This document shows, in pieces, positions 7,629-62,235 of a DNA stretch of 64,000 bases (the first letter of the stretch is position 1; the number at the start of each line of letters is the position of its first letter). The stretch comes from a virus. Location: UHGV virus genome UHGV-0036582, one strand, 5' to 3'. Both the position numbers and the translations under genes were made by a program. The notes beneath the pieces are model-generated. The model searched no databases and had not been told where the DNA came from. It saw nothing but the letters and a program-made list of their open reading frames with translations.

Positions 7629-8396
7629 TTATGCCGCGCTAACACTATGTTCAGTCCTAACCACTCCAACCTTCACAAAAGGGCTACCGTAGCTTGGTGG
7701 CTTCTTGATTAATTTGCCAACATACAGTTTTCTAATATGCTCATCGGCTATTCTGCCAACAAATTCATAACGTTTTGTGTCGGGGCCAAGAGCTATATCC
7801 CTTGTAAAGTACTGCTGAGAACCGGCTTTGACCCAGCATTCAATCTGATAAACTTCCATTATCAGCCCACCATATGTAGCGTAGGCATATTTGAGATTCT
7901 CGTCTCTTGGAACCTTTGCCCATACGCCACGCGTAGCTTCATATAATGCCAGAGCGGACATTCCTGACTTGTAGGTGCTGTTTAGCAGGAAGGCAAGACC
8001 GGCGTGCTCAGGAGCAATTTCAGTTTCCTCTTGCAGCACTAAGTGATGGTAGGCGTCCAGTGATATTCTGCCCATCATGGAACCACTTCCTCGTACCTTA
8101 TTCGTAAGCTCTCCGACCCCCATAAGGTCGATGCATGTCGCCTCAACAAGTTTGGCTGTGGTTTCATCCATACCATGACGAAGTATATCTATGCCTAATT
8201 TTTTATTAGCCAAAAGTTCTTTGATCCGCATGGATTTGGGAGAGTCATCGGGATACTTGATGTGATCGAGACAACGAGTCGATTTGCCTTTTCCTATGTA
8301 AAACGGTCTTTTCATCTTGTCTTCTGTATCATAGAGACAGTAAACATAGTATTTAGCCTTATCCAATGATCTCGCGTATACCGATAAATCGTCCAT
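7629..8396 (-). CDS. GIY-YIG nuclease-domain protein with an uncharacterised C-terminal domain
   Basis: N-terminus YYVYCLYDTEDKMKRPFYIGKGKSTRCLDH matches the GIY...YIG...R...H pattern; about 150 aa of unrecognised C-terminal sequence. Confidence 0.6.
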   Translation of the reverse strand: MDDLSVYARSLDKAKYYVYCLYDTEDKMKRPFYIGKGKSTRCLDHIKYPDDSPKSMRIKELLANKKLGIDILRHGMDETTAKLVEATCIDLMGVGELTNKVRGSGSMMGRISLDAYHHLVLQEETEIAPEHAGLAFLLNSTYKSGMSALALYEATRGVWAKVPRDENLKYAYATYGGLIMEVYQIECWVKAGSQQYFTRDIALGPDTKRYEFVGRIADEHIRKLYVGKLIKKPPSYGSPFVKVGVVRTEHSVSAA

Positions 8397-17901: not shown

Positions 17902-18054
17902 ACACAGCGTTGAGCGGTTTGGCCTTTTAATCAACTCGATTAAGACTCCGCTAACATAAACCAGACCGCTCAACGCTGTGATAGACAATTACGGCAGACG
18001 TTCTTAACCATAGCTTGCTAACATCCTAGCAACACTTTTTTCAGCGCAAAATTC

Positions 18055-18078
18055 AAAGGGGCTTCGGCCCCTTTTTTG
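18055..18078. terminator. Bidirectional rho-independent terminator between the tRNA cluster and the convergent minus-strand gene
   Basis: aaaggggc-ttcg-gccccttttttg: GC stem with an A-tract on one side and a T-tract on the other. Confidence 0.8.
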
Positions 18079-18092
18079 TTGAACAGTGCAAT

Positions 18093-19355
18093 TTACTTTG
18101 CATAGTCGCCCAATTTTAATATTTCGCGCTTATATTCATTAACCATGCTACTGGATTCAGTATAAATTCGATTTAAAAGATTATCGTTATCTTTATTTTC
18201 ATTTATCTTAATTAGTGCTAATTTATATTCATAGTCATCAAATGCCACAATTAAATGGTGGCCTGGGATTATATCTTCGTCACTCTTAAAGTATATATCT
18301 TCAAGTATGTAATCTAGTTGATTAGATTTTCTTTTCTCGATGTAATCTTCAGCCATAGCTATTACATCATTCCTGTCATTTAACCTGTTTTTTTCGGAAG
18401 GCACATCTTCGTAATGTTGCACGATTGAACAACCAATAAGGCGTGGGATGTAAACGTCAAAATGAGTAACTCTATCATTCGCGGTTTTAAGTAGTTCCTC
18501 AAAGTAGTTTCTTACATGTAAAGGCAACTTCTCAAAGTAATCATTAATTATAGGAGAACAAGGAGTTTTATAATTCATAAGAACCGACGGTACGAGCTTT
18601 GGGTGTCGAAACATCCAGTCCCTTTTAACGTCCGATGGAACATAATAACTTTTAATGATATTATCAAAATAATTTATCATTCGAGATTTGAATATTTTGT
18701 TGAATCTAAGGTTTATGAATGTATCCAGATAAGGCATATTTGAATAAGCATCATCAAAAAATATTTCATCATTGAAAAAATCATATTTATTCAATAAACA
18801 ACACAGTTTTTCCGAATTAATATGTTCACAATAATCGATTTTTAATCCAAAGATAGCAATGATCAACTTCATCTGAGGTGGGATTTTAAAAATTAATTGT
18901 GACACATACGCTCTTTTTTCCTTGAGACATTCCCCATCAATATAAAATGAACCATCCACATACTCAAATATATTAATAATATGCTTCACATACTGTATTA
19001 CCTCATGCTGTCTTACCAATGGATAATATAGTCTATGTAACTCATCGCTGTTTAAATTAATTTTGTGTTTATCGATAATTTGTTTTGCAAGAAGACATAA
19101 CTCATCATGTTGATTTAATAAGGAATCAAACCATTGTTTAAATGCACTCTTTCGCATTTCGAACAATGATTCAGTTGTTAATTGAAGGGCTGAAAAAGCT
19201 GCTTTTGCACTTTTTCTCGCTTCGTAGGCATTCCATGCTGTTGCTATAAAAGCAAATGCTGTAGCCAATGTTCCAACAGTTTGACCATTTAAAACAACCC
19301 AATCCCAAAAAATGACGGTGAGCAGTAGTATAATAATGAAAATTAAAAAAGGCAT
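18093..19355 (-). CDS. Low-GC membrane-anchored protein of unknown function (two N-terminal TM helices, about 350-aa cytoplasmic domain)
   Basis: 420-aa ORF, visibly far more AT-rich than its neighbours; TM helices FLIFIIILLLTVIFWDWVVL and LATAFAFIATAWNAY; Asn/Tyr/Phe/Lys/Asp-rich remainder with no recognisable catalytic motif. Confidence 0.6.
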   Translation of the reverse strand: MPFLIFIIILLLTVIFWDWVVLNGQTVGTLATAFAFIATAWNAYEARKSAKAAFSALQLTTESLFEMRKSAFKQWFDSLLNQHDELCLLAKQIIDKHKINLNSDELHRLYYPLVRQHEVIQYVKHIINIFEYVDGSFYIDGECLKEKRAYVSQLIFKIPPQMKLIIAIFGLKIDYCEHINSEKLCCLLNKYDFFNDEIFFDDAYSNMPYLDTFINLRFNKIFKSRMINYFDNIIKSYYVPSDVKRDWMFRHPKLVPSVLMNYKTPCSPIINDYFEKLPLHVRNYFEELLKTANDRVTHFDVYIPRLIGCSIVQHYEDVPSEKNRLNDRNDVIAMAEDYIEKRKSNQLDYILEDIYFKSDEDIIPGHHLIVAFDDYEYKLALIKINENKDNDNLLNRIYTESSSMVNEYKREILKLGDYAK

Positions 19356-19529
19356 GTATGTATTTCACTCTACTAACTATAAAATATTAGGCTAATGTTA
19401 ACCAAACAATGCCTTAATTAATAGATTGATCGAGGCTTTAATAGCTTTATAATGCAGACTGTAAAGATAAGTATGCACATACCTATCTTCTTTGTAAGTA
19501 AAGTTGCATATCAATTCTATGAGGTAACA

Positions 19530-19775
19530 ATGACGATCACTATCTACGGACGAGATAACTGCTCATACTGCAAACGTGCGGTCGAGCTGGCGAAGCAACT
19601 AAAGGGACATGGCTACGGTGATTATGAGTACATCGACATCACCACTGCCGGTATCGACAAGGAAAAACTAAGTGAAATTGTTGGTAAACCGGTAGAGACT
19701 ATCCCCCAAGTGCTGATCGATGGCCAACCGATTGGCGGATACACAGAACTGGCTGCATACGTCAGCACCCTCTGA
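19530..19775 (+). CDS. Glutaredoxin or NrdH-like redoxin
   Basis: Start set at the ATG at 19530; MTITIYGRDNCSYCKRAVELAK with a CxxC active site (CSYC); about 81 aa; GG pair near the C-terminus. Confidence 0.7.
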   Translation: MTITIYGRDNCSYCKRAVELAKQLKGHGYGDYEYIDITTAGIDKEKLSEIVGKPVETIPQVLIDGQPIGGYTELAAYVSTL

Positions 19776-19779
19776 TTTT

Positions 19780-19805
19780 AACGGCTCACAGGAGCCGTTT
19801 TTATT
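19780..19805 (+). terminator. Rho-independent terminator
   Basis: aacggctc-acag-gagccgtt followed by tttttatt. Confidence 0.75.
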
Positions 19806-19855
19806 CCCACCAAACTCACTCCCGTTTCCCTTAAAATTCAAAAAACAACGTCAAA

Positions 19856-19886
19856 ATGATTCCATACCTACTATGTATGGAATCAT
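19856..19886. promoter_or_regulatory. Candidate tyrosine-recombinase core site: 12-bp perfect inverted repeats around a 7-bp spacer
   Basis: atgattccatac-ctactat-gtatggaatcat, about 100 bp upstream of the recombinase gene; geometry resembles lox/dif-type sites. Confidence 0.4.
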
Positions 19887-19985
19887 TGCTGAAAATGAGT
19901 TACTTTTACTCTTGATCCTATAAGAATCTATGCCTAATATACTGTTTACTTATACAGTGCATCGGCGTAACTCGGTGATTGTCAT

Positions 19986-21089
19986 ATGAAAAATAGCTTT
20001 GACAGAGCACGCGCTGCGGAGAACACCTCAAAAGAGGCGATAGAGTATCTCGAAAGAGCATCTCAAATGCAGGCCGTTATGATCTCCCAGGTCAGCAATG
20101 ACATGAGATTCTCGGACGCATTCATGTTATTCACTCGCTTATCTCTGCTGATAACCAGACGTCGGCCAGAGATCGCTGTTCATTGTATTTTGATACATGT
20201 TTTGCCGCACCTTGCCGATGTAAAAGTAAGTGACATTAATAGGTTCATGGTGAACCAACTGGTCAACCCACTAATACTGGATGGCAAAATTGTTATGGGC
20301 CGCCGCGTTTTCTCTCTGATGAAGCAGTTCCTTAGCTGGTGCGCCTTCCAGGGGATGATAGACGTGTCACCGTTAAACGATATGTCACTTAACAATGTTG
20401 CCGGTGGCGCAAAGCCCACACCTCGCGAGCGGAAGCTGACCGACGCAGAGGTATGGGTGTTCTGGAATATATGGGACTACTTCAATGTGTGCGCTGGTAC
20501 AAAATGGGCGGCCAGGCTATGTCTTGTATCCGCAAGACGACCTGACGAAGTACTGCGGGCTAAAAAAAGTGAGTTCAACCTCCAGCGTGGGGTTTGGAAT
20601 CAAGGCAAGAGAAACAAATCAGCCCGTGAGCATTCTCTGCCTTTAAGCACATTAATGCGCACATGCATTGAAGAGTTATTCGAATATGGTAAAGGCAGCC
20701 AGTGGCTTGTGCCTTCGAATAAAAAAATCGGGAATGATCTTCCGATGTCTAAAGTGGCAATAGCCCAGGCATTACGCCGTATCCTGGAACGACCAGAACT
20801 GATGGAGCTTGAGCCATTTACACCCCGAGATTTGCGTCGTACTGCGCGTAGTTACTTCCCAGCATTAGGCATAAGCCAGGAGGTATCACGCAAAATCATG
20901 AACCACAGTCTTGAGGGGATAGATCGGGTCTACGACCGGCACGATTATATGGACGAGATGCGAGACGCCTTAGAAAGTTTCTCGACGTACATCGCATCAA
21001 TCGTAGAGCAACCGGATTTAGACGAAATTGACCACAAATTCAAGGGAGATCGTCTATCAACAGAGCTTATTCGTGTAAATTTTTCATAG
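19986..21089 (+). CDS. Tyrosine recombinase (integrase or resolvase family)
   Basis: Segments consistent with the catalytic R..K..H.R..H..Y set: VSARRPDEV, PRDLRRTARS, MNHS, RVYDRHDY. Confidence 0.75.
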   Translation: MKNSFDRARAAENTSKEAIEYLERASQMQAVMISQVSNDMRFSDAFMLFTRLSLLITRRRPEIAVHCILIHVLPHLADVKVSDINRFMVNQLVNPLILDGKIVMGRRVFSLMKQFLSWCAFQGMIDVSPLNDMSLNNVAGGAKPTPRERKLTDAEVWVFWNIWDYFNVCAGTKWAARLCLVSARRPDEVLRAKKSEFNLQRGVWNQGKRNKSAREHSLPLSTLMRTCIEELFEYGKGSQWLVPSNKKIGNDLPMSKVAIAQALRRILERPELMELEPFTPRDLRRTARSYFPALGISQEVSRKIMNHSLEGIDRVYDRHDYMDEMRDALESFSTYIASIVEQPDLDEIDHKFKGDRLSTELIRVNFS

Positions 21090-21470
21090 AGACTTTATGG
21101 CCTCAACAACCTTTTGTGATGCGCCTTTCTCTTTACCGAATCGCTCGTTATATGCAGCAAGAACCTGTTTTTCGTCCTCGTTAAGAGGCGCAGTGCCTTC
21201 TTTGTATAAAAATGCTGCGAGTTCAGGTTGGCGTTCTTCCAGCACCATCATCATAAGACGACTTGGCTCAATACCCAGCGCCAGCGCCAGCGGACGAACC
21301 TTATCGATAGGCAAAGGAATTTTGCCACTTTTAATTAAAGAAAGGTTGTTGGCATTTTTATAACCAATAAGTCTAGCTATTTGGGCCTGACTCATAGGTG
21401 AGGATTCAATCAGCCCTGCGATAAAAGCAGCATAGCGACTTTCTATAAATTCAATCTTGTTGTCAGACAT
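21084..21470 (-). CDS. Helix-turn-helix DNA-binding protein, possible transcriptional regulator
   Basis: 128 aa; HTH-like segment SQAQIARLIGYKNANNLSLIKSGK; convergent with the recombinase gene. Confidence 0.5.
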   Translation of the reverse strand: MSDNKIEFIESRYAAFIAGLIESSPMSQAQIARLIGYKNANNLSLIKSGKIPLPIDKVRPLALALGIEPSRLMMMVLEERQPELAAFLYKEGTAPLNEDEKQVLAAYNERFGKEKGASQKVVEAIKSL

Positions 21471-22032: not shown

Positions 22033-24132
22033 ATGTCTAAAAAACGTTCCATCAAAGAGGTTCAGGACTTCCGTGACAGTGTAAAACGAGTAGTCGCTCT
22101 CCTTTCAGGTAAAAACATCCCTGTTGCAGAACGAGGGGACGACGCTTATGTACGCTATAACGATGATGGAGAGCCAATTCTCGTAAACATCCCATCAATC
22201 CCGGATAACGCAACACCAGCATTGATGAATGCTGTGCGCGGATTTCTCGATCATGAGGTTGCTCACATTTTGTTTACCGATATTCATGTGTCCAACAAAA
22301 TGAGAGAAAAAGGACGCGTTCCTTCCTGGTCGCTATGGAATGCCTTAGAAGACGTGTTTATCGAGCGAAAAATGGGGCAGGTCTTTAACGGAACAAGACG
22401 TAATCTGATGGCAACTCAGCGCCTTATAATCGAAAAAGTCTTTAAACCAAAGGCTTCAGAGGCTATTACTTATTGTGGCAAAGATCAGCGCGCGCTTTTT
22501 CTAAACTTCTTTCTCTGTCCGGTTGTAAGAGCCTGGGATGGCCAAGCACCGTTCGTAGATTTCATGGATGAATACTGGCCTGTCATTGAGAAACCAATTT
22601 CATTATTAAAAGAACATGGTATCGATGTGGCCGTGCGTAACATGTCTTGCACCGGGGATTGTTTAAAGGTGGCTGCGACCATCGCTAAGATCCTCAAAGA
22701 CACAGAAAGTGAAAGCAAAGGTAAGGAGTCAGCTCCGGGAAAAACTTCCGATCCTTCAGACGCTGATCACGCGGATTCCTCTGGAGAAGGCGATGAAGAT
22801 CACAAGACACCCGAATCGTTAGATAATCACATATCTATTAAAGAAAATTCAAAAGGTAAGCACAAATACGATAATAACAACAGTGATAATTCAGATAACT
22901 CTGAATCATCAGAAACAATATTCGATGATACAGAAAATGATAAAGAGGTATCAGATTCTGGTGCTTCTGATAACGCGGCGTCAGAAGCATTGACCACTGA
23001 CCACGAAAAAAGAAAATCGACAGAAGACGGCTCTTCAGACATTCCAACTCCGTCAAAAATGAGTCTGGAAGAGGCTTTAGAGGAGTTGGATAGCATGGAA
23101 GATGAAGTCGGAGGCATGACAGAAGATGCGCTATCCGAAACGATTAAAAGCGAGTTAACAGAAAGCTCGAAAAGCGAATACAGGCCATACAATCGCTCAT
23201 ACGACTTCATCGGCTCGATTGATCAGGCAGAAGCCCATATCAAACGGCTTATTAAAACATTCTCCGATATTGATTTAGGTGGATATCCAATCAGCCGTTA
23301 TCGCATCGTTCCTGAAGGCAACCAACTCTTCGACAAATATATTGAAAAGCACCTTTCGTCAGGTGTTTCGTCGACGCTGGCAAAAGACCTGGAACGTGCA
23401 ATAGCAAGCAGAAACAGAGTTCAGTTTATACCTGGCCAGCGTCGGGGGCGCATTCATGGTTCAAGTATCTACAGATTAACAATGAATGATGATCGCGTGT
23501 TTCGTAAAAAAGAAGAATCTAAAGCCGTTAACGCCTGTGTTCAACAAGTGATTGATTTATCAGGTTCAATGAGTGGTATAACGATACAATTGGCTCTTGC
23601 AAGTGCATATACCATCGCCGATGCCCTTGATCGAATAAATGTTCCCAACATTATCACCGGCTTCACTACATTTGGTAGTCATATGGCGGCAGGAGAACTT
23701 AAGGCTGTCAAGTATGAGTTCTCTCGCTTTGAATCTTTAATGCTACCTATCATCAAAAATTGGAATGAAAAGGTAAATTCTCGCGAAGTTCGCTCACGTA
23801 TGGGGTGCGTAGGCTACACATTCCCACTTCTTAATAACGTGGATGGTGAAAGCATAGCCAGCCTTGCATCGTTATTTTCCGGTCGCATGGAGGACAGGAA
23901 GATCATGCTTGTTCTGAGTGATGGCGCGCCGTGGGCTGTTGGGAGAGGTTTTGACGCTCATTTGCGTTCGGTTGCGAAGCAAATTGAAACGCAGACTGAT
24001 ATTGATTTGATGGCAATTGGCATCATGACTGACGCACCGGAGAGATTTTACTCAAATCATGCCCTGGTAACGAGCGTTGATAGTCTTGGTTCATCTGTAG
24101 TTACTGAACTATCTCGTATCATTTTAAAGTGA
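22033..24132 (+). CDS. vWA-domain protein (CobT-like) with acidic low-complexity linker
   Basis: 699 aa; MIDAS-like motif DLSGSMSG; central Asp/Glu/Ser-rich tract; followed by an AAA+ ATPase gene, the usual CobS/CobT-like pairing seen in large phages. Confidence 0.65.
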   Translation: MSKKRSIKEVQDFRDSVKRVVALLSGKNIPVAERGDDAYVRYNDDGEPILVNIPSIPDNATPALMNAVRGFLDHEVAHILFTDIHVSNKMREKGRVPSWSLWNALEDVFIERKMGQVFNGTRRNLMATQRLIIEKVFKPKASEAITYCGKDQRALFLNFFLCPVVRAWDGQAPFVDFMDEYWPVIEKPISLLKEHGIDVAVRNMSCTGDCLKVAATIAKILKDTESESKGKESAPGKTSDPSDADHADSSGEGDEDHKTPESLDNHISIKENSKGKHKYDNNNSDNSDNSESSETIFDDTENDKEVSDSGASDNAASEALTTDHEKRKSTEDGSSDIPTPSKMSLEEALEELDSMEDEVGGMTEDALSETIKSELTESSKSEYRPYNRSYDFIGSIDQAEAHIKRLIKTFSDIDLGGYPISRYRIVPEGNQLFDKYIEKHLSSGVSSTLAKDLERAIASRNRVQFIPGQRRGRIHGSSIYRLTMNDDRVFRKKEESKAVNACVQQVIDLSGSMSGITIQLALASAYTIADALDRINVPNIITGFTTFGSHMAAGELKAVKYEFSRFESLMLPIIKNWNEKVNSREVRSRMGCVGYTFPLLNNVDGESIASLASLFSGRMEDRKIMLVLSDGAPWAVGRGFDAHLRSVAKQIETQTDIDLMAIGIMTDAPERFYSNHALVTSVDSLGSSVVTELSRIILK

Positions 24133-24227
24133 ACAAAACAGCCTTAATGATAAGTAACCACTTACGATAGATAATGATATATTTATATAAGAAGTTGAAC
24201 GCTCATTAGAGAACAAAGGAAAAACGC

Positions 24228-25463
24228 ATGACGACTACTGCACTGCAAAATGAAAAAAATCCTTCTGATTACCTTGTTTGCAAGTGGTGCGGCAAATCAT
24301 TTCACTATTTTAAGTCCCATGTAGCCAATGGTAATTGCGAGGGCATTCCTGAGTCAGTAAAAGATGCCGATCCTGACACCGTACTGAAAATGTACACAAC
24401 GCAGTTTCCAGATGAACCAACGCTATCGAAAAAGGCACTTGATGCAATTCAAGCTAAACGTGCCGAGCAAAAAAGCGAAATGGCCAAATCTTCTGGCTTG
24501 ACCAGTAGCCCTGGCTACACAGGCACAGTTGAGTACAAGACAGATCTGGTCGCAGCTCACGAACTGCTAAACGTAACGGTGGAAGAACTCGGAACAAAAC
24601 GTGGGACGCCGCTCATGGTTAGCGTCAACGTCAATACGCCGTATCCAGAGTTCGTTCCCGAAGTGAAGAAAGGCTACGTATATGGCGACTTCGAACTGAT
24701 CAAAGATATTTTCATGATGCTTGAACTTGGCATACCTGGCTATTTGTGGGGTCATGCAGGAACAGGCAAATCGTCATTGCCTACACAGCTATGTGCTTTG
24801 CTCAATCGTCCGTTGATCCGTGCCCAACATACAGCATCAATGGAAGAGGCACATGTTACGGGGCAAATTCTGGCGCGTGATGGCTCTACGTATTTCGAAC
24901 CTGGCTTGCTTGCGCTCGCAATGAAGCATGGCTGGGTTTACCTCGCAGATGAATACGACTTTGCGTTTCCACAAATTCTTGGCGTGTATCAGCCAGTGCT
25001 GGAAGGTGAAGCGTTGGTCATCAAAGAGGCAACTCCAGAATGGCGTCGCATTACTCCGCATGAACGGTTTGCTTTCATTGGCACTGGCAACACGAACGGA
25101 TCTGGTGATGAAACCGGCTTGTACCAGGGTACAAACATCCAGAACGCCGCGAACTTTTCGCGTTTTGGCATCGTTTCGAATGTGAAATACATGAGCAAAG
25201 ACGCAGAGATCAACATGTTGACAAATGCAGGCATCGTGGATGAATACGCTGAAAAGATGGTTAAGTTTGCCGGTATCGTTCGCGATGGATACGAAGAACA
25301 CCTTATTAGTCAGCCAATTGGCCCTCGTGAACTTTTGTTGTCGGCCAAGATTGGAATGATGCGAGGCGACTTTGTGACAGGTATTGAGCGTTCTTTCATT
25401 AACAAACTCCCTTCAGCTTCTGCACAAGCGGCTCGTGAAGTTGTTCAAAAAATATTTGGTTAA
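24228..25463 (+). CDS. MoxR/CobS-like AAA+ ATPase with N-terminal zinc-ribbon
   Basis: Walker A GHAGTGKSS, Walker B-like WVYLADEYD; N-terminal CKWCG...GNCEG cysteine cluster. Confidence 0.7.
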   Translation: MTTTALQNEKNPSDYLVCKWCGKSFHYFKSHVANGNCEGIPESVKDADPDTVLKMYTTQFPDEPTLSKKALDAIQAKRAEQKSEMAKSSGLTSSPGYTGTVEYKTDLVAAHELLNVTVEELGTKRGTPLMVSVNVNTPYPEFVPEVKKGYVYGDFELIKDIFMMLELGIPGYLWGHAGTGKSSLPTQLCALLNRPLIRAQHTASMEEAHVTGQILARDGSTYFEPGLLALAMKHGWVYLADEYDFAFPQILGVYQPVLEGEALVIKEATPEWRRITPHERFAFIGTGNTNGSGDETGLYQGTNIQNAANFSRFGIVSNVKYMSKDAEINMLTNAGIVDEYAEKMVKFAGIVRDGYEEHLISQPIGPRELLLSAKIGMMRGDFVTGIERSFINKLPSASAQAAREVVQKIFG

Positions 25464-49206: not shown

Positions 49207-50076
49207 ATGAACTTTACCAAACTGACTGACCACCTGAAACTTGCCACCGATCGTCTCATTGGATTTAAGCCAGAACCATATGAGTTGCATGAAGGTCATG
49301 GTGTAGCTACTGAAAGTATTTACAAGATGGTCGATCAGTTTCATGAACTCTTCCAGCATCCGAGACGCGTTATGCCGACACCAGAGCTGCTTCGTCTCCG
49401 TGCAAGCCTGATTCATGAAGAAGCTGTAGTGGAAGGTATTCCAGCCGCAATGAATGGGGATATTGAGCAACTGCTGGATGCAATGGCCGACTTTTTATAC
49501 GTTGGTGTTGGTACGATGGTCGCCATCAAAGGTGGTATTTCTACCGGCATGACCTATTACACGCAGGAACAGAGCATTGATCGCTTTATGCAGACAATTT
49601 TTGTGCCCGGTAACACTGTTTTCGATGATATGGCAATGCCATTTCAGGAAGCTCGTGAGGCGTCATATATGCTCGAAGAGCTGGCAGATAAACTTGAGAA
49701 CAAGACTGTTAAGGATTCTGAGCTGATTCAGGAACTGCGCCGTGTCATGAACAAAATCTATGTGGCGTGCATGATGACCTATCGACTGGCTGATTTCCTC
49801 GGTATCAATGTAGTCGAGCTGGTTGGCGAAATTCATCGGTCTAACATGACAAAATTATGGCCTGCTGATGTCGAGGAACGTCGCCAGGCTGTGGCCAACT
49901 GCAAATACGACTCTTCAGACCTGGGATTTCGCCATGCTGATGGTACCGATAAGATGATCGGTTTTCGAATTTCCGATGGAAAGATTCTGAAGTCTCCAAC
50001 CTATAGTGATGTCGATTTATCCTCCTTTGTTGAGCAAGCTAAAGCCTCAGCAATGTACGGAATGATCAAAAAATAA
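49207..50076 (+). CDS. Possible MazG-like all-alpha nucleotide pyrophosphohydrolase
   Basis: 289 aa; acidic helical segments EEAVVEG...DIEQLLDAMADFLYV loosely resemble the MazG/HisE EExxE...D motif; tentative. Confidence 0.3.
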   Translation: MNFTKLTDHLKLATDRLIGFKPEPYELHEGHGVATESIYKMVDQFHELFQHPRRVMPTPELLRLRASLIHEEAVVEGIPAAMNGDIEQLLDAMADFLYVGVGTMVAIKGGISTGMTYYTQEQSIDRFMQTIFVPGNTVFDDMAMPFQEAREASYMLEELADKLENKTVKDSELIQELRRVMNKIYVACMMTYRLADFLGINVVELVGEIHRSNMTKLWPADVEERRQAVANCKYDSSDLGFRHADGTDKMIGFRISDGKILKSPTYSDVDLSSFVEQAKASAMYGMIKK

Positions 50077-50144
50077 TTGTAGGTAGTTATCTATCTATGT
50101 ATATTGTGTTAGCGCGTTAAATTCCTGAAACAACTATTCGTTTT

Positions 50145-50169
50145 GGTGGCCTATGGCCACCATTTTTTT
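50145..50169 (+). terminator. Rho-independent terminator
   Basis: ggtggcc-tat-ggccacc then attttttt. Confidence 0.8.
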
Positions 50170-50219
50170 ATCTATCTGGCCTTGTTCCCTCAATAAATGT
50201 AAACTCACGCAATGAATAA

Positions 50220-51350
50220 GTGATTACTTATCTTTGTGAGGTTTTTGTGTCACTCCTTTTGAATCGTGAGCATACGAACGGTCAGGTAACAAACGCATCG
50301 TATGCAAAAGTTATTGAGACGGTGCTTAAAAGCGGCGTGCAGGCTGATGATCGCACAGGCACTGGTACTTTAAGCACCTGCTACGTTCCCTCTTACTACA
50401 TGCTTACTGGTGGGACTGTGCCGCTTATTTCTGGAAAGGCGGTAAATCTTAAGCCACTGCTTGTCGAACTTGAGTGGTATCTGAAAGGCACGGGCAACAT
50501 CCAATTTCTCAAGGATAACGGCGTTAAGATTTGGGATGCATGGGCCGATGAGAATGGCGATTTGGGGCCGGTTTACGGTAAGCAGTGGCGTCGATGGGAA
50601 GATACCCGCATCGTGAGCCATAGTGAATATCTGAGCAAGATCGCTACTTTCCGTGAACGCGGGTACAAAGTCGAGGGATACCTGGGTATCAGTGAAGATC
50701 GCGTAGTGCTGTCCCGTGAAATCGATCAGCTACAGCGTATTGTCGATACACTGCGCACGAACCCTACCGATCGTCGCATCATGCTTAACGCATGGAACGT
50801 AGGCGAGCTTGAGGATATGAAACTGCCACCTTGCCACTTTGTCTTCTCTTTGTGGAGTCGTGAACTGGATTTTGAAACCCGTTTAACGATGGCAACTGAC
50901 ATTGGTCTACAACACAGTCGCCTCGGTTATGAGTCTATCTACACCAAGATGCTATACGATCTGGAGATGGACGGCAGTGTTACTGAAACTGAACTGGATG
51001 AACTTGGAATCCCCAAACGCATCCTCAACTCCTGCCTCGTACAGCGTAGCGTAGACACTTTTGTTGGTATGCCATTCAATATTGCTGGCTATGGCATTCT
51101 CACTCATTTTCTCGCGAAGATTACGGGTCACATGGCCGGTGCATTTGTGCATTTTGGCTTTGACGTGCATTTGTACAACAACCACATGGAAGGTGTGTGT
51201 GAGCTAATGCAACGACAGGCTCCAGAGCATTCAGATCCGGTCGTTATATTCCCTAATGAATGGTCTGAGCTGGATGATTTCAAATGGGACGAGATTCTTA
51301 TTCTTGGCTATGCCCCTCTACCGTGGATCAAGGTTCCAGTGGCGGTGTGA
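50220..51350 (+). CDS. thyA: Thymidylate synthase homologue with insertions (start codon uncertain)
   Basis: DRTGTGTLS, WADENGDLGPVYGKQWRRWE, NAWNVGELEDMKLPPCH and MPFNIAGYG match ThyA blocks; two insertions of about 30 and 45 aa relative to E. coli ThyA as recalled. Confidence 0.8.
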   Translation: MITYLCEVFVSLLLNREHTNGQVTNASYAKVIETVLKSGVQADDRTGTGTLSTCYVPSYYMLTGGTVPLISGKAVNLKPLLVELEWYLKGTGNIQFLKDNGVKIWDAWADENGDLGPVYGKQWRRWEDTRIVSHSEYLSKIATFRERGYKVEGYLGISEDRVVLSREIDQLQRIVDTLRTNPTDRRIMLNAWNVGELEDMKLPPCHFVFSLWSRELDFETRLTMATDIGLQHSRLGYESIYTKMLYDLEMDGSVTETELDELGIPKRILNSCLVQRSVDTFVGMPFNIAGYGILTHFLAKITGHMAGAFVHFGFDVHLYNNHMEGVCELMQRQAPEHSDPVVIFPNEWSELDDFKWDEILILGYAPLPWIKVPVAV

Positions 51351-51351
51351 T

Positions 51352-51765
51352 ATGGCAAGAGGTATGTATGTCTTATGCGAAATTGAAGGTGTGCTGGCAA
51401 ATACCAGCCATCGTAAATCTGTATCTGACTCGGATGCAGGCCAATTCATTGCCGGTGATGAACTCATTTTCCCCACCAGCCGTATGTTGCGTGGTTTTGC
51501 TCGCTCAGGGGCTGAAGTGGTGCTTATCAGTAGCCGCTCTGAAACTCTTGAAGCGCCCACTAAACGATGGCTGAAAGATTTTGGTGTTGATTACGACTGG
51601 CTTCACCTCGTACCGAATAGCACTAGTTATGAGAAGCATATTAAGCGCACATTAGCGGAGCATAAAGGCGATCTGCTTATCGCTGCGCTGGTGCACGATC
51701 CTCGACTCCGTGCCGCTTTAGCTGACTCACATCATAGACCGGTCATCTATGAGGTGAGCAAATGA
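51352..51765 (+). CDS. Hypothetical protein between thyA and the DHFR gene
   Basis: Start set at the ATG at 51352, just after the thyA stop; the listed start at 51256 would overlap thyA by about 95 nt; 137 aa. Confidence 0.45.
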   Translation: MARGMYVLCEIEGVLANTSHRKSVSDSDAGQFIAGDELIFPTSRMLRGFARSGAEVVLISSRSETLEAPTKRWLKDFGVDYDWLHLVPNSTSYEKHIKRTLAEHKGDLLIAALVHDPRLRAALADSHHRPVIYEVSK

Positions 51766-52238
51766 AGATGATAGCTGCTGTTGGCCGTAACTATGAGATC
51801 GGCATAGCGAACGAACTGCCCTGGCGTTGTTCTACCGATCTGAAGCTATTTAAGAGACTCACCAAAAACGCCACTGTCGTTATGGGGCGTAAAACGATGG
51901 AAAGTCTCAAACGCCCTCTTCCAGAGCGTCATAACCTCGTTTTGACGCGCTCTCATGGCTTTGTACCAAATGGATTCTACCCTGCTGGTGTGGATGATGT
52001 GTTGCGATTACCAGAGCCTGTGTGGGTGATTGGCGGGGAACAAATTTACTCGCTATTCATGCCGCATGTTGAAGAGATTTGGCTCTCCCACATCGGCGTT
52101 GATGTGCCAAACGCCGATGCATTCTTCCCGGCAAGCATGATGCGTAATTTAGGCTTTGTGCCTGTTGAAACAGCTTATACCCAACGAGCCAGCGAGGAAG
52201 AGCCTGGCTTTTCGCAGATCGTATACAGAAGGTCGTAA
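51762..52238 (+). CDS. folA: Dihydrofolate reductase
   Basis: N-terminus MKMIAAVGRNYEIGIANELPWR..DLKLFKRLT and VVMGRKT match the DHFR signature; 158 aa; adjacent to thyA. Confidence 0.85.
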   Translation: MKMIAAVGRNYEIGIANELPWRCSTDLKLFKRLTKNATVVMGRKTMESLKRPLPERHNLVLTRSHGFVPNGFYPAGVDDVLRLPEPVWVIGGEQIYSLFMPHVEEIWLSHIGVDVPNADAFFPASMMRNLGFVPVETAYTQRASEEEPGFSQIVYRRS

Positions 52239-52882
52239 TGGATTACCGGATTGGGATCACTGGTGCTCAGGGCAGTGGGAAAACAACCCTGGCTAAATAT
52301 ATCGACAAACATTACGGAATCCCTTACGTGGATGCTGGTGTCGGAAGTTTGATGAGCCGCCTCGGTGTTCGAGTAGGTGATTCTATGCCTCTATATGAGC
52401 GGCTTCAGATTCAAATGGAAATAGCAAAGCATATAGAGCTACTTACGCGTGGTGCTGAAGGCTTTGTTATCGATCGCACACCTGCTGATGTTATGGCCTA
52501 CACGTTGGATTTGGTCGGCCATACAAATGAAGATCGGTGTATTGAGTTAGCCCTCGATATCGAAAAGTTTTGCCACAAAACTGCTATTTCAAACTTTAAC
52601 GCCATTGCTGGCCTACGCCCGGGGGTCGCTCTCTCAGAGCGAGATTACTTGCGGTCACAACGAGCATCATTAGACCGTCTGTATGTCGCTCGTATTGATG
52701 CGTTGATGTGCGGGGAACTGACAAAAATTCACCTGCATCCGCAAAGGGGAGATCTGCAAACCTTCGTCGTTTCCAACCGGTATCGCACAGTTGAAGCAAG
52801 AGCCAGATCAGTGATGAGAATGCTAGATAACGCGGTAGAAAAGATAGAAAACCGGTTCTGTGGCCGAGTGACCGTTCATTAG
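52238..52882 (+). CDS. P-loop nucleotide kinase (deoxynucleoside monophosphate kinase-like)
   Basis: Walker A GITGAQGSGKTT at the N-terminus; 214 aa; lies in the nucleotide-metabolism block. Confidence 0.5.
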   Translation: MDYRIGITGAQGSGKTTLAKYIDKHYGIPYVDAGVGSLMSRLGVRVGDSMPLYERLQIQMEIAKHIELLTRGAEGFVIDRTPADVMAYTLDLVGHTNEDRCIELALDIEKFCHKTAISNFNAIAGLRPGVALSERDYLRSQRASLDRLYVARIDALMCGELTKIHLHPQRGDLQTFVVSNRYRTVEARARSVMRMLDNAVEKIENRFCGRVTVH

Positions 52883-55081: not shown

Positions 55082-55675
55082 ATGATTGCAGCCGAAAAAA
55101 TCAAACAGCGAAAGCGCGACAACTCTCTTCGTGACCTCTGGAGAACACCTGACTGGCTGTTTTCTGCCATTCAACGTTATCTTGGAGTGACATTTGATGT
55201 TGACGTTGCCTGCAACAAGGACAATGCAAAGCTGCCTAATTTCATAGGCGTTGAGCGTGATGCTTTGAAATCTGAATGGGGACAGCCAGGTACAATTGCC
55301 TTCCTAAATCCACCCTACTCCAAAATCTCCCCCTGGATTGATGCGGCTATACGTGAGCAGGCTCGCGGAGTTACAACAGTGATGCTAATTCCTCAATCCC
55401 TAGATACAAAGTGGTATGAGCGTGCAACAGAGTGTGCGAATGAGACGATTATTCTGTCTGGTGGCCGCGTAGCGTTTGTCGAGCCTGACGTAAATCTGGG
55501 TCAGGTAGAAGTAAACATCAACCCAGGTGGCAGTATGCTCGTTGTTTTTCGAGGATTCTGTCAGGACGCTGGGCACTCTATAAGCAAGATCCCTTTGGAC
55601 GTCATGAAAAGTCTGGGAGGGTATGATCCTGCGAATGTGATCAGGAAAAAAAGACCATCAAAGAAGGCTGCTTAG
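55082..55675 (+). CDS. Phage Dam-type DNA N6-adenine methyltransferase
   Basis: Catalytic motif NPPY in IAFLNPPYSKISPWIDAAIRE; 197 aa. Confidence 0.7.
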   Translation: MIAAEKIKQRKRDNSLRDLWRTPDWLFSAIQRYLGVTFDVDVACNKDNAKLPNFIGVERDALKSEWGQPGTIAFLNPPYSKISPWIDAAIREQARGVTTVMLIPQSLDTKWYERATECANETIILSGGRVAFVEPDVNLGQVEVNINPGGSMLVVFRGFCQDAGHSISKIPLDVMKSLGGYDPANVIRKKRPSKKAA

Positions 55676-60508: not shown

Positions 60509-60550
60509 TAATTGCACCATTAAACAAATCTTTTCTTAATGGTGCAATTA
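60509..60550 (+). promoter_or_regulatory. Perfect 15-bp-stem hairpin covering the translation-initiation region of the methyltransferase gene
   Basis: taattgcaccattaa ... ttaatggtgcaatta; the right arm ends at the A of the ATG at 60550. Confidence 0.5.
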
Positions 60551-62235
60551 TGAATACAGCTCTTTCCATCATCGACGATGCCAACTCAAACACTGCTATC
60601 GATTATCGTCAGGAAATGAACGTCATCCACGAAATTGTGGCCGAGTGCGAGAAGGAGATCGCCTTCATGTATCAGGTTCACGACTTCGTTTATGGAGACG
60701 AACGCCACAACATGATTAATCGCCTGCTGCAACTGAACCACCGACCAGATGAAGAACGCTCACGTTTGAATCGAGCTTGGCTGGATAAAGTCGATCTGGA
60801 ATGGGTGAAACAGAATATTTGGGCCGAGTACTGGAGGAAGGTCACGGATATGACTAACGTTCTGCTGATCATGCCAGCTTCCCGTCGCGACGAGTGGCGT
60901 GAGCAGTTTATCGAGGGTAAGCAGGAAGTCATCAAAACTGACAGAACCGGCTATCAGATGAAGGTAAAAGAGTTCGTTGGTGTACCGGAGTTCAAAGCAG
61001 AAACGGTCATACCCACGATGCTTAATTTGCTGAATGACAGGCACAAATATCTCTCTGAGCGCGTGTATGGCTTGTTTAAGGCGCTGAGTCCTGCGCACAA
61101 GACAAATAAGACAAACGGTTTCAGCGAACGTCTGATAATCGCTGACTGCATTTCTGATTTCTGGCGGGACAGCGTTAGTGTGAACTATCGCAAAGAGGAC
61201 TATATCGACGATCTGCGTGTCTTGCTTCATTTCTTCGCGCACAAAGAATTTATTACCATCAACCGCACTGCTGAGGTGCTATCAGCTGCGTATCGGGCAA
61301 ACGACTGCCAGACCGGTGACTGGATGAACGTCGATGGAAATCTGATGCGCGTGAAGATGTTCAAGAACGGCAACGTTCACTTTGAAATACATCCTGACGT
61401 GGCCTGGAAGTTGAATGAGGTGCTGGCTTACAGTATGCCTGCTGCAATCCCCGCGCCATGTCGCACCGCGCCAAAAACACGGGCACCAAAGCAGTTCGGG
61501 TTAATCCAGAAGACGATCTCCGTGCCGGTTCGCACTGCGCTTCGTGACGGGCGATTGAGCAAAGACAAAGGCGTATGGTACTTCTCTGATTCAGCTCTCC
61601 AGAAGTCGCAGGTGGAAGAGCTTGAGCGCACACTGAGCTTCATTGGCGGCGTGCAGGAGAAAAAGCACTGGCAGTTCCCGTATGACATCGTCCATACGCT
61701 AAATACGATTGTGGCTACCGGTTTAATACCGGATACAAAATCACACCAGTTCTACCCTACCCCACGCTTGATTGCTGAGTACGTTGCCAGAGCCACTGAA
61801 TTGAAGTCTGGTGAGAAGCTGCTGGAGCCTCAAGCCGGACGTGGGGATCTTCTGGCCTATATTAACGCCGATCTGGAAGATGTTACCTGCATAGAAATCG
61901 CACCTCTCTTCGCTGATATCCTGCGTGGAAAAGGGTATACGAACACGATTTGCTGCGACTTCATAAAGTGGTCTGAGGACAACGTAGGTTATCAGTTCGA
62001 CAAAATCGTTATGAACCCGCCGTATTCGCTTGGTCGTCATAGAGAGCACACGCTGGCTGCGCTGGGGCATCTGAAAGTCGGCGGGCGTCTTGTAGCAGTA
62101 TTGCCGGGCACTGCGCCAATACTGGACTGGATGACGATGGATAATTACGTTTATGCCAGAGGGAAGTCGTTTACCAACGAGTTTGAAGACACAGGGATCA
62201 CAGTCAGCGTATACGTTTTCAAACGCGTTAAATGA
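60550..62235 (+). CDS. Orphan DNA methyltransferase (N6-adenine type) fused to a large N-terminal domain of unknown function
   Basis: C-terminal 150 aa carry QFYPTPRLIAEYV, SAM-binding LLEPQAGRGDLL and catalytic IVMNPPY; the N-terminal 400 aa or so have no recognisable motif. Confidence 0.7.
   Translation: MNTALSIIDDANSNTAIDYRQEMNVIHEIVAECEKEIAFMYQVHDFVYGDERHNMINRLLQLNHRPDEERSRLNRAWLDKVDLEWVKQNIWAEYWRKVTDMTNVLLIMPASRRDEWREQFIEGKQEVIKTDRTGYQMKVKEFVGVPEFKAETVIPTMLNLLNDRHKYLSERVYGLFKALSPAHKTNKTNGFSERLIIADCISDFWRDSVSVNYRKEDYIDDLRVLLHFFAHKEFITINRTAEVLSAAYRANDCQTGDWMNVDGNLMRVKMFKNGNVHFEIHPDVAWKLNEVLAYSMPAAIPAPCRTAPKTRAPKQFGLIQKTISVPVRTALRDGRLSKDKGVWYFSDSALQKSQVEELERTLSFIGGVQEKKHWQFPYDIVHTLNTIVATGLIPDTKSHQFYPTPRLIAEYVARATELKSGEKLLEPQAGRGDLLAYINADLEDVTCIEIAPLFADILRGKGYTNTICCDFIKWSEDNVGYQFDKIVMNPPYSLGRHREHTLAALGHLKVGGRLVAVLPGTAPILDWMTMDNYVYARGKSFTNEFEDTGITVSVYVFKRVK

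Follow-up and report, generated by a model that had tools for sequence, protein, structure and literature searches.

Thymidylate synthase (TS, ThyA) is an obligate homodimer that turns dUMP and 5,10-methylene-THF into dTMP and dihydrofolate. In these enzymes, the active site is closed for hydride transfer by the C-terminal tail together with W83 and L143 (E. coli numbering), while in the related hydroxymethylases an Asp three residues before the catalytic Cys (Cys-3) activates water (PMC6400193). From the ternary complex of T4 dCMP hydroxymethylase, the signature of the latter enzymes was proposed to be Asp/Glu at Cys-3, a polar residue by the Tyr and no C-terminal tail (PMC6400193). Specificity for dUMP is set by N177 (PMC8670742). 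For the SSU5-like elements, the SSU5 orthologue of the dihydrofolate reductase (DHFR) described below is dfrA51, whose expression makes E. coli resistant to trimethoprim (PMC12217456).

The window, i.e., the whole stretch of 64,000 nucleotides that was analyzed, is an SSU5-like phage-plasmid that shares 98–99% identity with the Escherichia phages CMS-2020a and Cyrano. With a probability of roughly 0.93, its thyA gene encodes a catalytically competent, folate-dependent ThyA (EC 2.1.1.45). This reading is based on homology, conservation of the catalytic and ligand residues, the predicted fold, the operon context and purifying selection, from which we infer the activity itself. The features of the locus are as follows.

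49207–50076, + strand: gene for a MazG/PRA-PH-like nucleoside triphosphate pyrophosphohydrolase, upstream of thyA (PF01503, 7e-9; phrog_671)
50144–50172, + strand: intrinsic-terminator-like hairpin and T-run separating the MazG-like gene from thyA (8-bp stem with 6 G-C pairs, then TTTTTTT)
50238–50241, + strand: Shine-Dalgarno-like GAGG, 5 nt 5' of the GTG start, read from the sequence
50247–51350, + strand: thyA, thymidylate synthase of 367 aa plus TGA stop (homology, annotated relatives, structure model)
50604–50705, + strand: insertion 1, +34 aa (about aa 120–153), between E. coli W98 and I110 (alignment, AF2)
50832–50837, + strand: codons of the catalytic Cys196-His197 (E. coli C146-H147) within K-L-P-P-C-H (alignment, residue table)
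50859–51017, + strand: insertion 2, +51 aa (about aa 205–257), in the beta-hairpin at about E. coli 152–161 (alignment, AF2)
51352–51765, + strand: gene for a HAD-superfamily phosphatase (PNKP-phosphatase-like, 137 aa), its ATG 1 nt past the thyA stop
51762–52238, + strand: gene for dihydrofolate reductase (PF00186, 1.6e-34), its start overlapping the HAD stop
52238–52882, + strand: gene for a P-loop nucleotide/nucleoside kinase-like protein (AAA_28, 3e-10), its start abutting the DHFR stop

In the ORF listing, the maximal reading frame on the + strand runs from 50220 to 51350, 50220 being its upstream end. The real start of thyA is most likely the GTG at 50247, with the GAGG upstream of it. 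The resulting 367-aa call agrees with the annotated CDSs in PhiR41_1, SSU5 and pJN2-26, and its length agrees with that of 367-aa database homologues. The original prediction of a ThyA homologue at 50220–51350 proved to be real, with a match to Pfam PF00303 at E 2.8e-78 (263 bits; cut-off, 24.3), a TIGR03284 score of 219 bits that places the protein in the family (cut-off, 108.35) and a BLASTP E-value of 4e-63 against E. coli ThyA, corresponding to 117 identities in 262 aligned core positions (approximately 45%). As the insertions break up the alignment, the protein fell under the high cut-offs of the more narrowly defined NF0024xx equivalog models. Moreover, it scored 320 bits on the ThyA PHROG versus 63 bits on that of the SPO1 gp29 dUMP hydroxymethylase. 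The AF2 model reached a pLDDT of 94.7 and, in Foldseek, covered all 264 residues of E. coli TS with a TMt of 0.94. No second TS-fold gene was found in the 64-kb window.

The residues of the active site were tabulated in E. coli numbering for the window protein and 31 SSU5-clade homologues. R21, K48, E58, I79, W80, W83, Y94, R126, R127, L143, C146, H147, Q165, R166, S167, D169, F176, N177, D205, H207, Y209, V262 and A263 were kept by the window protein and by every one of the homologues (31/31). The catalytic and phosphate-binding set is therein represented by Cys146 (window C196), His147 (H197), Arg21 (R36), Arg166 (R267), Arg126'/127' (R176/177), Glu58 (E74), Tyr94 (Y110), Asp169 (D270), His207 (H308) and Tyr209 (Y310), and the hydride-transfer set by Trp80 (W96), Trp83 (W99), Leu143 (L193) and Phe176 (F277), all of which are present. 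The dUMP specificity residue Asn177 corresponds to N278 and is invariant (31/31). The published hydroxymethylase signature is absent from the window protein: Cys-3 is Leu193, which is the TS state, the residue beside the catalytic Tyr is Val109 within G-P-V-Y-G as in E. coli, and the C-terminus, KVPVAV, carries the full P-V-A-V tail of the TS form P-V-A-[IV]-COOH.

An altered active-site neighbourhood had been proposed from the string PPCHFVFSLW at the catalytic Cys. The string is present, but PPCH itself is an ordinary ThyA form, as T4 Td reads LPPCH and Pro occupies E. coli position 144 in 62 of 84 non-SSU5 matches; only the stretch at E. coli 148–153 is unusual (FVFSLW instead of AFFQFY). 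Within it, Q151S, F152L and Y153W are on the beta-strand that leads from the active site into insertion 2, away from any substrate-contacting residue. The proposal was thus overstated, as all catalytic, dUMP-contacting and pterin/PABA-contacting residues of the window protein and of 31/31 homologues show the ThyA state. Among the ligand-site positions, deviations were confined to the folate glutamate-tail loop, where the SSU5 clade shows R49A, H51N and S54P, and to L172V; E82A, Q151S, F152L, Y153W and Y164V are the further changes of the clade. Because of this divergence at the folate-tail loop and other positions, the kinetics or folate-polyglutamate preference of the SSU5-clade ThyA could differ from the usual.

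The terminator-like hairpin 5' of thyA suggests that thyA is the first gene of a separate transcription unit. A simple scan of the + strand gave no convincing sigma-70 promoter. The stop and start codons of thyA and the HAD, DHFR and kinase genes touch or overlap, and thyA is translationally coupled to these three genes. For the HAD gene, the listed ORF at 51256–51765 was rejected as a longest-ORF artefact, as phrog_5387 aligns from residue 33. The P-loop kinase-like protein showed weak PHROG matches to (d)CMP kinase and thymidylate kinase. The module is conserved in SSU5, in Klebsiella pJN2-26 and in a Photobacterium element, and the window thyA was found in 230 of 5,426 complete E. coli genomes. 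The neighbouring DHFR had been taken to speak for a genuine ThyA, and this argument was borne out: the DHFR is coupled, and its SSU5 orthologue is active (PMC12217456). In the proposed pathway, ThyA would methylate dUMP to dTMP with 5,10-methylene-THF as the carbon and hydride donor, and the released dihydrofolate would be re-reduced by the co-transcribed and translationally coupled DHFR. Together with the phage NrdAB, the MazG-like pyrophosphohydrolase and the P-loop kinase, both enzymes would form a thymidylate-supply module that serves phage or plasmid DNA replication.

The original prediction had also raised a pyrimidine hydroxymethylase as an alternative. In one form, the window protein would be a dUMP hydroxymethylase feeding 5-hmdU, possibly hypermodified, into virion DNA, and the MazG-like, HAD and kinase proteins would clear dTTP/dTMP and phosphorylate hmdUMP. 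The SPO1, ViI and M6-type phages indeed use ThyA-fold enzymes with similar accessory activities (PMC8989533), the pyrophosphohydrolase, phosphatase and P-loop kinase neighbours superficially resemble the auxiliaries of 5-hmdU phages, and SPO1 gp29 is also long (383 aa). However, BLASTP against gp29 returned E 0.025 compared with 4e-63 against E. coli ThyA, and on the gp29 PHROG (phrog_5131) the window protein scored 62.7 bits, less than E. coli ThyA (95.6), while gp29 scored 455.7. The known 5-hmdU phages (ViI-like and M6-like) have gp29-type enzymes (phrog_5131/3676), and the window protein lies outside this family. On alignment with the ThyA and hydroxymethylase families, it was in the TS state at every discriminating position, with Leu at Cys-3 and with W83, H147, F176, D205 and the P-V-A-V tail kept. 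A coupled functional DHFR is required only where dihydrofolate is made, and 230 sequenced E. coli genomes carry the element as a plasmid. Gene clusters for thymidine hypermodification have aGPT-Pplase, a 5-hmU DNA kinase (5-HMUDK) and accessory genes close to the TS homologue. Neither aGPT-Pplase nor any other thymidine-hypermodification gene was found by Pfam, PHROG and PADLOC in the 27 ORFs scanned of the 60 window ORFs of at least 130 aa; these 27 took in the genes around thyA and the majority of the large ORFs for replication, repair and other functions. They encode standard replication, repair and methyltransferase functions, and the DNA-modifying enzymes among them were Dam and a second methyltransferase only. 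A literature search returned nothing on DNA modification in SSU5-like phages. A dUMP hydroxymethylase is very improbable. In the other form, the protein would be a dCMP hydroxymethylase or methylase, giving 5-hmC or 5-mC DNA, for which the common fold and the phage precedent of T4 gp42, grouped with ThyA in phrog_160, can be cited. Against it, the residue at E. coli position 177 is Asn (window Asn278) in the window protein and all 31 clade members and Asp in dCMP enzymes (PMC8670742), His197 is kept at position 147, the other discriminating position in MetaGPA (PMC8670742), and BLASTP to gp42 gave only 6e-5 over 75 residues, which leaves this form with a vanishingly small probability. Thus, a switch of the window ThyA to hydroxymethylation is essentially excluded.

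A degenerate, non-catalytic ThyA fold, kept for a structural or regulatory role of the insertions, was also weighed. Two large insertions and the clade-specific changes in the post-Cys strand and folate-tail loop are compatible with such a protein, but the catalytic residues are all invariant although the clade has diverged to approximately 47% identity, and they are unchanged where synonymous sites are saturated even between the closest relatives compared. As the core model also superimposes on E. coli TS at TM 0.94 and a DHFR is coupled to the gene, loss of activity was considered highly improbable, and the active ThyA is preferred.

The two insertions of about 30 and 45 aa in the original prediction were likewise recovered and amount to +34 and +51 aa with E. 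coli ThyA as the reference. Alignment to the solved ThyA chains falls into three blocks (27–128, 166–213 and 270–376 in 376-aa numbering), and therefore two insertions are present. Insertion 1 replaces the short loop at E. coli 99–109 (RAWPTPDGRH) and was modelled as a small alpha/beta unit (strand 117–124, helices 125–130 and 132–137, strands 141–146 and 152–159); throughout the long-form family described below it carries the motif W-x-D-T-R-[IV]-V ... R-G-[YF] ... R-x-I-D-Q. NCBIfam NF010393 (323 aa) aligns in one stretch through this region. Insertion 2 was modelled as three helices (209–225, 231–242 and 247–253), with conserved anchors at its start, [ST]-R-E-L-x3-[ET]-R, and end, [LM]-D-x2-x-[IV]-P-[KR]-R, and a middle that is hypervariable in sequence and length (0 to approximately 74 extra aa). 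Both are predicted to be confidently folded (pLDDT 94.7), and no solved TS structure covered them in Foldseek. In the SSU5 group, per-segment comparisons gave dN of 0.04–0.29 with saturated dS for the insertions, and for insertion 1 between the window and SSU5 dN was 0.04 and dS 0.95; as synonymous sites were saturated in most comparisons, these values are read only qualitatively as dN << dS, and they indicate purifying selection on both insertions.

When the two insertions alone were scanned with Pfam at E up to 10, insertion 2 matched nothing, and the only hit was a chance-level Sedlin_N (E 0.095). An exhaustive phmmer search with insertion 2 (60 aa) as the query, over 1.84 billion cluster representatives, returned its own cluster and two marginal matches (approximately 3–5e-4), with no sign of a mobile or independent domain; a single-sequence search of this kind is too insensitive to follow insertion 2 into jumbo-phage ThyAs. 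An intein or intron origin was discarded, as the insertions keep the reading frame, show no intein splice motifs, fold together with the rest of the protein and are conserved at the protein level. Going by what is generally known of the TS fold, we take insertion 1 to lie on the small-domain side and insertion 2 to form the tip of the hairpin whose first strand begins with the catalytic Cys, presumably at the far end of the interface sheet, away from the active sites. The insertions are thus predicted to be folded surface modules grafted on loops of the ThyA core, which probably leave the chemistry unchanged. Given this presumed place of insertion 2, they may extend the dimer interface, or they may offer a docking surface for other phage nucleotide-metabolism proteins.

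Whether the insertions do anything specific was judged from the same data. They could be neutral loop expansions with no specific role, as opposed to modules for interaction or dimerization, an explanation that we hold only tentatively: insertion 2 has a hypervariable middle (length and sequence), no domain match was obtained, and either insertion may be missing from related ThyAs, 10 matches having insertion 1 only and 3 insertion 2 only. On the other hand, both are confidently folded in the model, their anchor motifs are conserved in very distant phages, and selection on both is purifying within the SSU5 group. A specific interaction surface, which would turn this ThyA into a scaffold within a phage dNTP-supply complex instead of a free-standing enzyme, is rather unlikely; it might consist of an enlarged dimer interface or of a docking site for phage nucleotide-metabolism enzymes or host factors.

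Both insertions occurred in 67 of the 115 listed homologues. They are present in SPN3US and recur in many metagenomic phage contigs. The model of the window ThyA matched those of 201phi2-1 and related jumbo-phage ThyAs with a TMq of 0.83–0.86, compared with 0.68 for the core alone. Almost certainly a genuine ThyA, the window protein belongs with these proteins to what appears to be an undescribed "long-form" viral subfamily defined by the two insertions. The long form is common to SSU5-like phage-plasmids and to nucleus-forming and other jumbo phages, and so far it was found only in phage-like contexts. In the contexts of five long-form homologues on large contigs, no chromosomal housekeeping copy was seen; four contigs looked like large phages, and the fifth, a Photobacterium chromosome record, had the SSU5-like module. 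The literature search found no experiment on the window ThyA or any long-form ThyA, nor on jumbo-phage TS insertions.

With respect to base modification, the result is mostly negative: the sequence, as far as the 27 scanned ORFs cover it, gives no reason to suspect hypermodified thymidine in SSU5-like phage-plasmids, which are common in clinical Enterobacterales. The thyA gene forms a pair with a DHFR gene that is already known for trimethoprim resistance (dfrA50/dfrA51). Because of this pairing, a functional plasmid-borne ThyA would bear on antifolate tolerance, and it would also bear on the rescue of thymine-auxotrophic hosts. For enzymologists, a long-form ThyA with two folded insertions seen in no solved TS poses a modest structural question.

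Compared with the hydroxymethylases, the window protein shares with SPO1 gp29 and T4 gp42 the superfamily fold, the catalytic Cys and Glu58, Tyr94, Arg166 and Asp169. Both hydroxymethylases have Asp at Cys-3 and lack W83, L143, H147, F176, D205 and the sealing C-terminal tail; moreover, T4 gp42 has a polar Ser/Thr by the catalytic Tyr (S94-x-Y96), where the window protein reads G-P-V-Y-G, and Asp at position 177 instead of Asn278. E. coli ThyA (PDB 1TYS, 2TSC and others) has the same fold, catalytic, dUMP-binding and pterin-binding residues and C-terminal tail. It lacks the +34 and +51 aa insertions, and the window protein has an N-terminus that is 15 aa longer and the substitutions R49A, H51N, S54P, E82A, Q151S, F152L, Y153W, Y164V and L172V.

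The long forms of SPN3US (gp037, 338 aa), Erwinia jumbo phages and 201phi2-1 (457 aa) are expanded at the same two sites and share the anchor motifs of these insertions, and all are annotated as thymidylate synthase, none being characterized. They differ from the window ThyA in showing only 37–41% identity, in the middle of insertion 2, which is unrelated in sequence, and in gene context, as DHFR is not always adjacent in the lytic jumbo phages. The SPN3US core is far more E. coli-like and keeps A-P-C-H-A-F-F-Q-F-Y. T4 Td is likewise a phage ThyA whose surface carries insertions specific to its lineage, and a DHFR gene lies next to it (frd-td). However, its insertions are smaller and lie elsewhere, with +8 aa after E. 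coli W83 and +12 aa near E. coli 226–244, whereas the two sites expanded in the window ThyA carry none in T4 Td.

An ORF for a ThyA homologue had been proposed at 50220-51350, and both the ORF and the family assignment were borne out. Translation likely starts at GTG 50247, with GAGG five bases before it, giving a protein of 367 aa; the same length is annotated in PhiR41_1, SSU5, and pJN2-26 and is also seen in database homologues. The homology was unambiguous, as the protein matched PF00303 (E 2.8e-78), TIGR03284 (219 bits; cut-off 108), phrog_160 (320 bits), and E. coli ThyA (BLASTP, 4e-63), and its alignment with solved ThyA chains split into three blocks. Judged from its sequence, the protein is a ThyA family member by every defining feature that could be tested. 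The gene has already been recorded as thymidylate synthase (TS) in hundreds of entries. In the Cyrano record OV696614 (72630-73730), it is named 'ThyX Thymidylate synthase', which is a mis-annotation; the product is ThyA (PF00303), not the flavin-dependent ThyX.

To describe the active site, 49 positions in E. coli numbering were tabulated for five reference proteins, namely, E. coli ThyA, T4 thymidylate synthase (Td), the window protein, T4 dCMP hydroxymethylase (gp42), and SPO1 dUMP hydroxymethylase (gp29), and for two homologue sets, 31 SSU5-clade homologues and 84 other hits. In the window protein, the known dUMP-contacting, pterin/PABA-contacting, and catalytic residues all showed the ThyA state, and they were invariant in the SSU5 clade. 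The residues in the ThyA state were as follows:

R21, K48, E58, I79, W80, W83, Y94, R126, R127, L143, C146, H147
Q165, R166, S167, D169, F176, N177, D205, H207, Y209, V262, A263

The C-terminus ended in P-V-A-V. The original prediction had pointed to the string PPCHFVFSLW as a sign of an altered active-site neighbourhood. The string was found, and 'PPCH' is the commoner form among ThyAs. The unusual positions were 148-153, FVFSLW for the usual AFFQFY, and Y164V, which sit on the two strands entering and leaving the second insertion, together with R49A, H51N, and S54P in the folate glutamate-tail loop, E82A, and L172V. Only the glutamate-tail loop and L172V are substrate-contacting; thus, the alteration had been overstated, because most of the unusual positions contact no substrate. 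A C-terminal Lys (…PVAK) in place of the usual Val/Ile was observed in 13 of the 31 SSU5-clade members (handles P0020-P0036; Providencia, Morganella, Xenorhabdus, and relatives) and in 1 of the 84 other hits. As the terminal carboxylate touches the cofactor in E. coli TS, this side-chain change may be tolerated, unusual though it is.

A pyrimidine hydroxymethylase had been raised as the alternative identity. The ternary complex of T4 dCMP hydroxymethylase gives the features dividing hydroxymethylation from methylation (PMC6400193): hydroxymethylases carry Asp/Glu three residues before Cys, which activates water, and a polar Ser/Thr beside the catalytic Tyr, have Trp83 and Leu143 replaced, and lack the C-terminal tail, which in TS closes off the site for hydride transfer. 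In the residue table, gp42 and gp29 had Asp at Cys-3 and lacked H147, W83, F176, D205, and the tail. Unlike them, the window protein had Leu193 and Val109 at the two diagnostic positions and kept all TS features. Asn at position 177 selects dUMP over dCMP (PMC8670742), and the equivalent residue was Asn278. Moreover, gp29 defines phrog_5131 (456 bits), and the phages with relatives of gp29 are precisely those known for 5-hmdU, the ViI-like and M6-like ones; the window protein scored 63 bits against this family, lower than E. coli ThyA (96 bits). BLASTP gave E 0.025 with gp29 and 6e-5 with gp42. Alignment against both families thus found the ThyA features and none of those tested for a hydroxymethylase, whether residues, tail, or the gp29 family model, and the alternative is very unlikely.

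The gene lies on an SSU5-type element. The 4.5 kb around thyA showed 98-99% identity with the Escherichia phages CMS-2020a, Cyrano (the pLF82 phage-plasmid), and PhiR41_1, and approximately 75% nucleotide identity with Salmonella phage SSU5. A search of 5,426 complete E. coli genomes found this thyA in 230, at 234 places, of which 232 lie on ~110-kb plasmids; the copies there carry the annotation thymidylate synthase. In the window, the genes for replication and nucleotide metabolism make up a module of typical SSU5 type: DnaB helicase, primase, and ligase; the CobT/AAA_5 pair, Pol III alpha, gp32-like SSB, FEN, and RecA; Rep3 plasmid initiator and SbcCD; NrdA, NrdB, MazG-like, ThyA, HAD phosphatase, DHFR, P-loop kinase, and DnaQ-like exonuclease, in this order; and Dam with a second methyltransferase. 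The located features were as follows:

7629-8396 (-), 255-aa ORF matching PADLOC model PD-T4-3 (E 1.3e-23) and phrog_5356, a candidate anti-phage defence gene on the phage-plasmid by sequence
18000-21100, low-GC island (GC 0.34 vs ~0.46 elsewhere) that looks like an acquired accessory cassette
18093-19355 (-), 420-aa ORF in the island, phrog_18168 (unknown function), without Pfam or PADLOC match
19986-21089, tyrosine recombinase/integrase-like gene adjoining the 420-aa ORF
22033-25463, 699-aa CobT-like VWA protein and AAA_5 (CobS/MoxR-like) ATPase, just upstream of the Pol III alpha gene
50247-51350 (+), thyA
51352-51765, HAD phosphatase similar to the phosphatase domain of PNKP (PF25109; phrog_415/505 'polynucleotide kinase')
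52238-52882, P-loop kinase
55082-55675, Dam-family DNA methyltransferase gene (PF05869)
60550-62235, DNA methyltransferase gene, 561-aa protein in phrog_6263

A terminator-like hairpin was found upstream of thyA, whose stop is one base from the HAD phosphatase start; next, the phosphatase gene runs into the start of the DHFR gene, whose own stop directly adjoins the start of the kinase gene. The phosphatase and kinase, which flank DHFR in this translationally coupled operon, look like a T4-PNKP-like pair split in two, or they may instead be a nucleotidase and a dNMP kinase. Superficially, the MazG, HAD, and kinase neighbours are like the auxiliary enzymes of 5-hmdU phages; roles in supplying dUMP from dUTP and in phosphorylating dTMP would suit them equally well. 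The window has 60 ORFs of at least 130 aa; a scan of 27 of them, roughly half, turned up neither an aGPT-Pplase-type gene nor any DNA-modifying function beyond the two methyltransferases, and the window contained no TS-fold gene other than thyA. A hydroxymethylase releases THF and has no need of DHFR, whereas TS releases DHF (PMC6400193); dfrA51, the SSU5 orthologue of the window DHFR, is enzymatically functional and gives resistance to trimethoprim (PMC12217456). From the fully conserved catalytic apparatus, the fold, and this context, we infer TS chemistry: the enzyme would convert dUMP and CH2-THF to dTMP and DHF, and DHFR would recycle the DHF.

The two insertions relative to E. coli ThyA were close to the ~30 and ~45 aa first estimated; the family alignment placed 34 extra residues between W98 and I110 and 51 in the 152-161 hairpin. 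An AlphaFold2 model from 77 homologues was very confident (pLDDT 94.7, pTM 0.93); in it, insertion 1 (residues 117-159) folds into a strand, a pair of short helices, and a beta-hairpin, and insertion 2 into three helices (209-225, 231-242, and 247-253). The model superposed on the whole E. coli TS (TMt 0.94) with a TMq of only 0.68, and no solved TS structure, whether bacterial, human, mouse, Cryptococcus, or bifunctional TS-DHFR, covered the extra parts. Among predicted viral structures, the ThyA of Pseudomonas phage 201phi2-1 (457 aa) and related jumbo-phage ThyAs reached TMq 0.83-0.86; therefore, the extra architecture is shared at least in part.

By sequence, both insertions occurred in SSU5-like elements of Escherichia, Salmonella, Klebsiella, Raoultella, Enterobacter, Providencia, Morganella, Xenorhabdus, and Photobacterium, in SPN3US-like and Erwinia jumbo phages and Cronobacter phage CR5, and in many metagenomic contigs (100-350 kb) whose gene content is phage-like. 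Both were present in 67 of the 115 homologues listed, the first only in 10, and the second only in 3. A Pfam search of both insertions gave no domain match, and insertion 2 had no detectable relatives beyond its own cluster among 1.84 billion representatives. We could not find this long-form architecture or its distribution described in the literature searched; it appears to be a minor structural elaboration, restricted to phage-like contexts in the sequences examined. The long-form ThyA of Salmonella phage SPN3US (handle L014, 6046-7062) has a strikingly E. coli/Salmonella-like core (e.g., LAPCHAFFQFY and KLIIKRKPESIFDYKFEDFEI) and yet carries both insertions, which suggests that it either recombined recently with host thyA or is a host-derived gene that gained the insertions. 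The 323-aa bacterial ThyA equivalog model NF010393 (NCBIfam) aligned without a break over the region of insertion 1, with protein residues 27-223 on profile positions 3-210; therefore, some cellular ThyAs may have a segment like insertion 1.

Insertion 1 carries the conserved motif W-x-D-T-R-[IV]-V ... R-G-[YF] ... I-D-Q. Insertion 2 is anchored by [ST]-R-E-L-x3-[ET]-R and [LM]-D-x3-[IV]-P-[KR]-R, between which the middle varies from nothing to >70 residues. In the comparison of the window, SSU5, and pJN2-26, dN was 0.04-0.29 in both insertions and synonymous sites were at or beyond saturation; thus, both are maintained as protein. In the TS fold, the strand that begins at the catalytic Cys belongs to the dimer-interface sheet and leads away from the active site. 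The tip of the insertion 2 hairpin should, we assume, sit at the far end of the dimer interface, possibly beside the copy of the other subunit, and insertion 1 presumably replaces a short small-domain surface loop, where eukaryotic TSs have an 8-residue insert. The favoured reading is that the insertions would be surface modules extending the dimer interface or acting as docking sites, with neutral expansion being about as likely. A proposal similar to that of surface modules was reportedly made by Finer-Moore et al. in 1994 for the insertions of T4 Td, which differ from those of the window protein.
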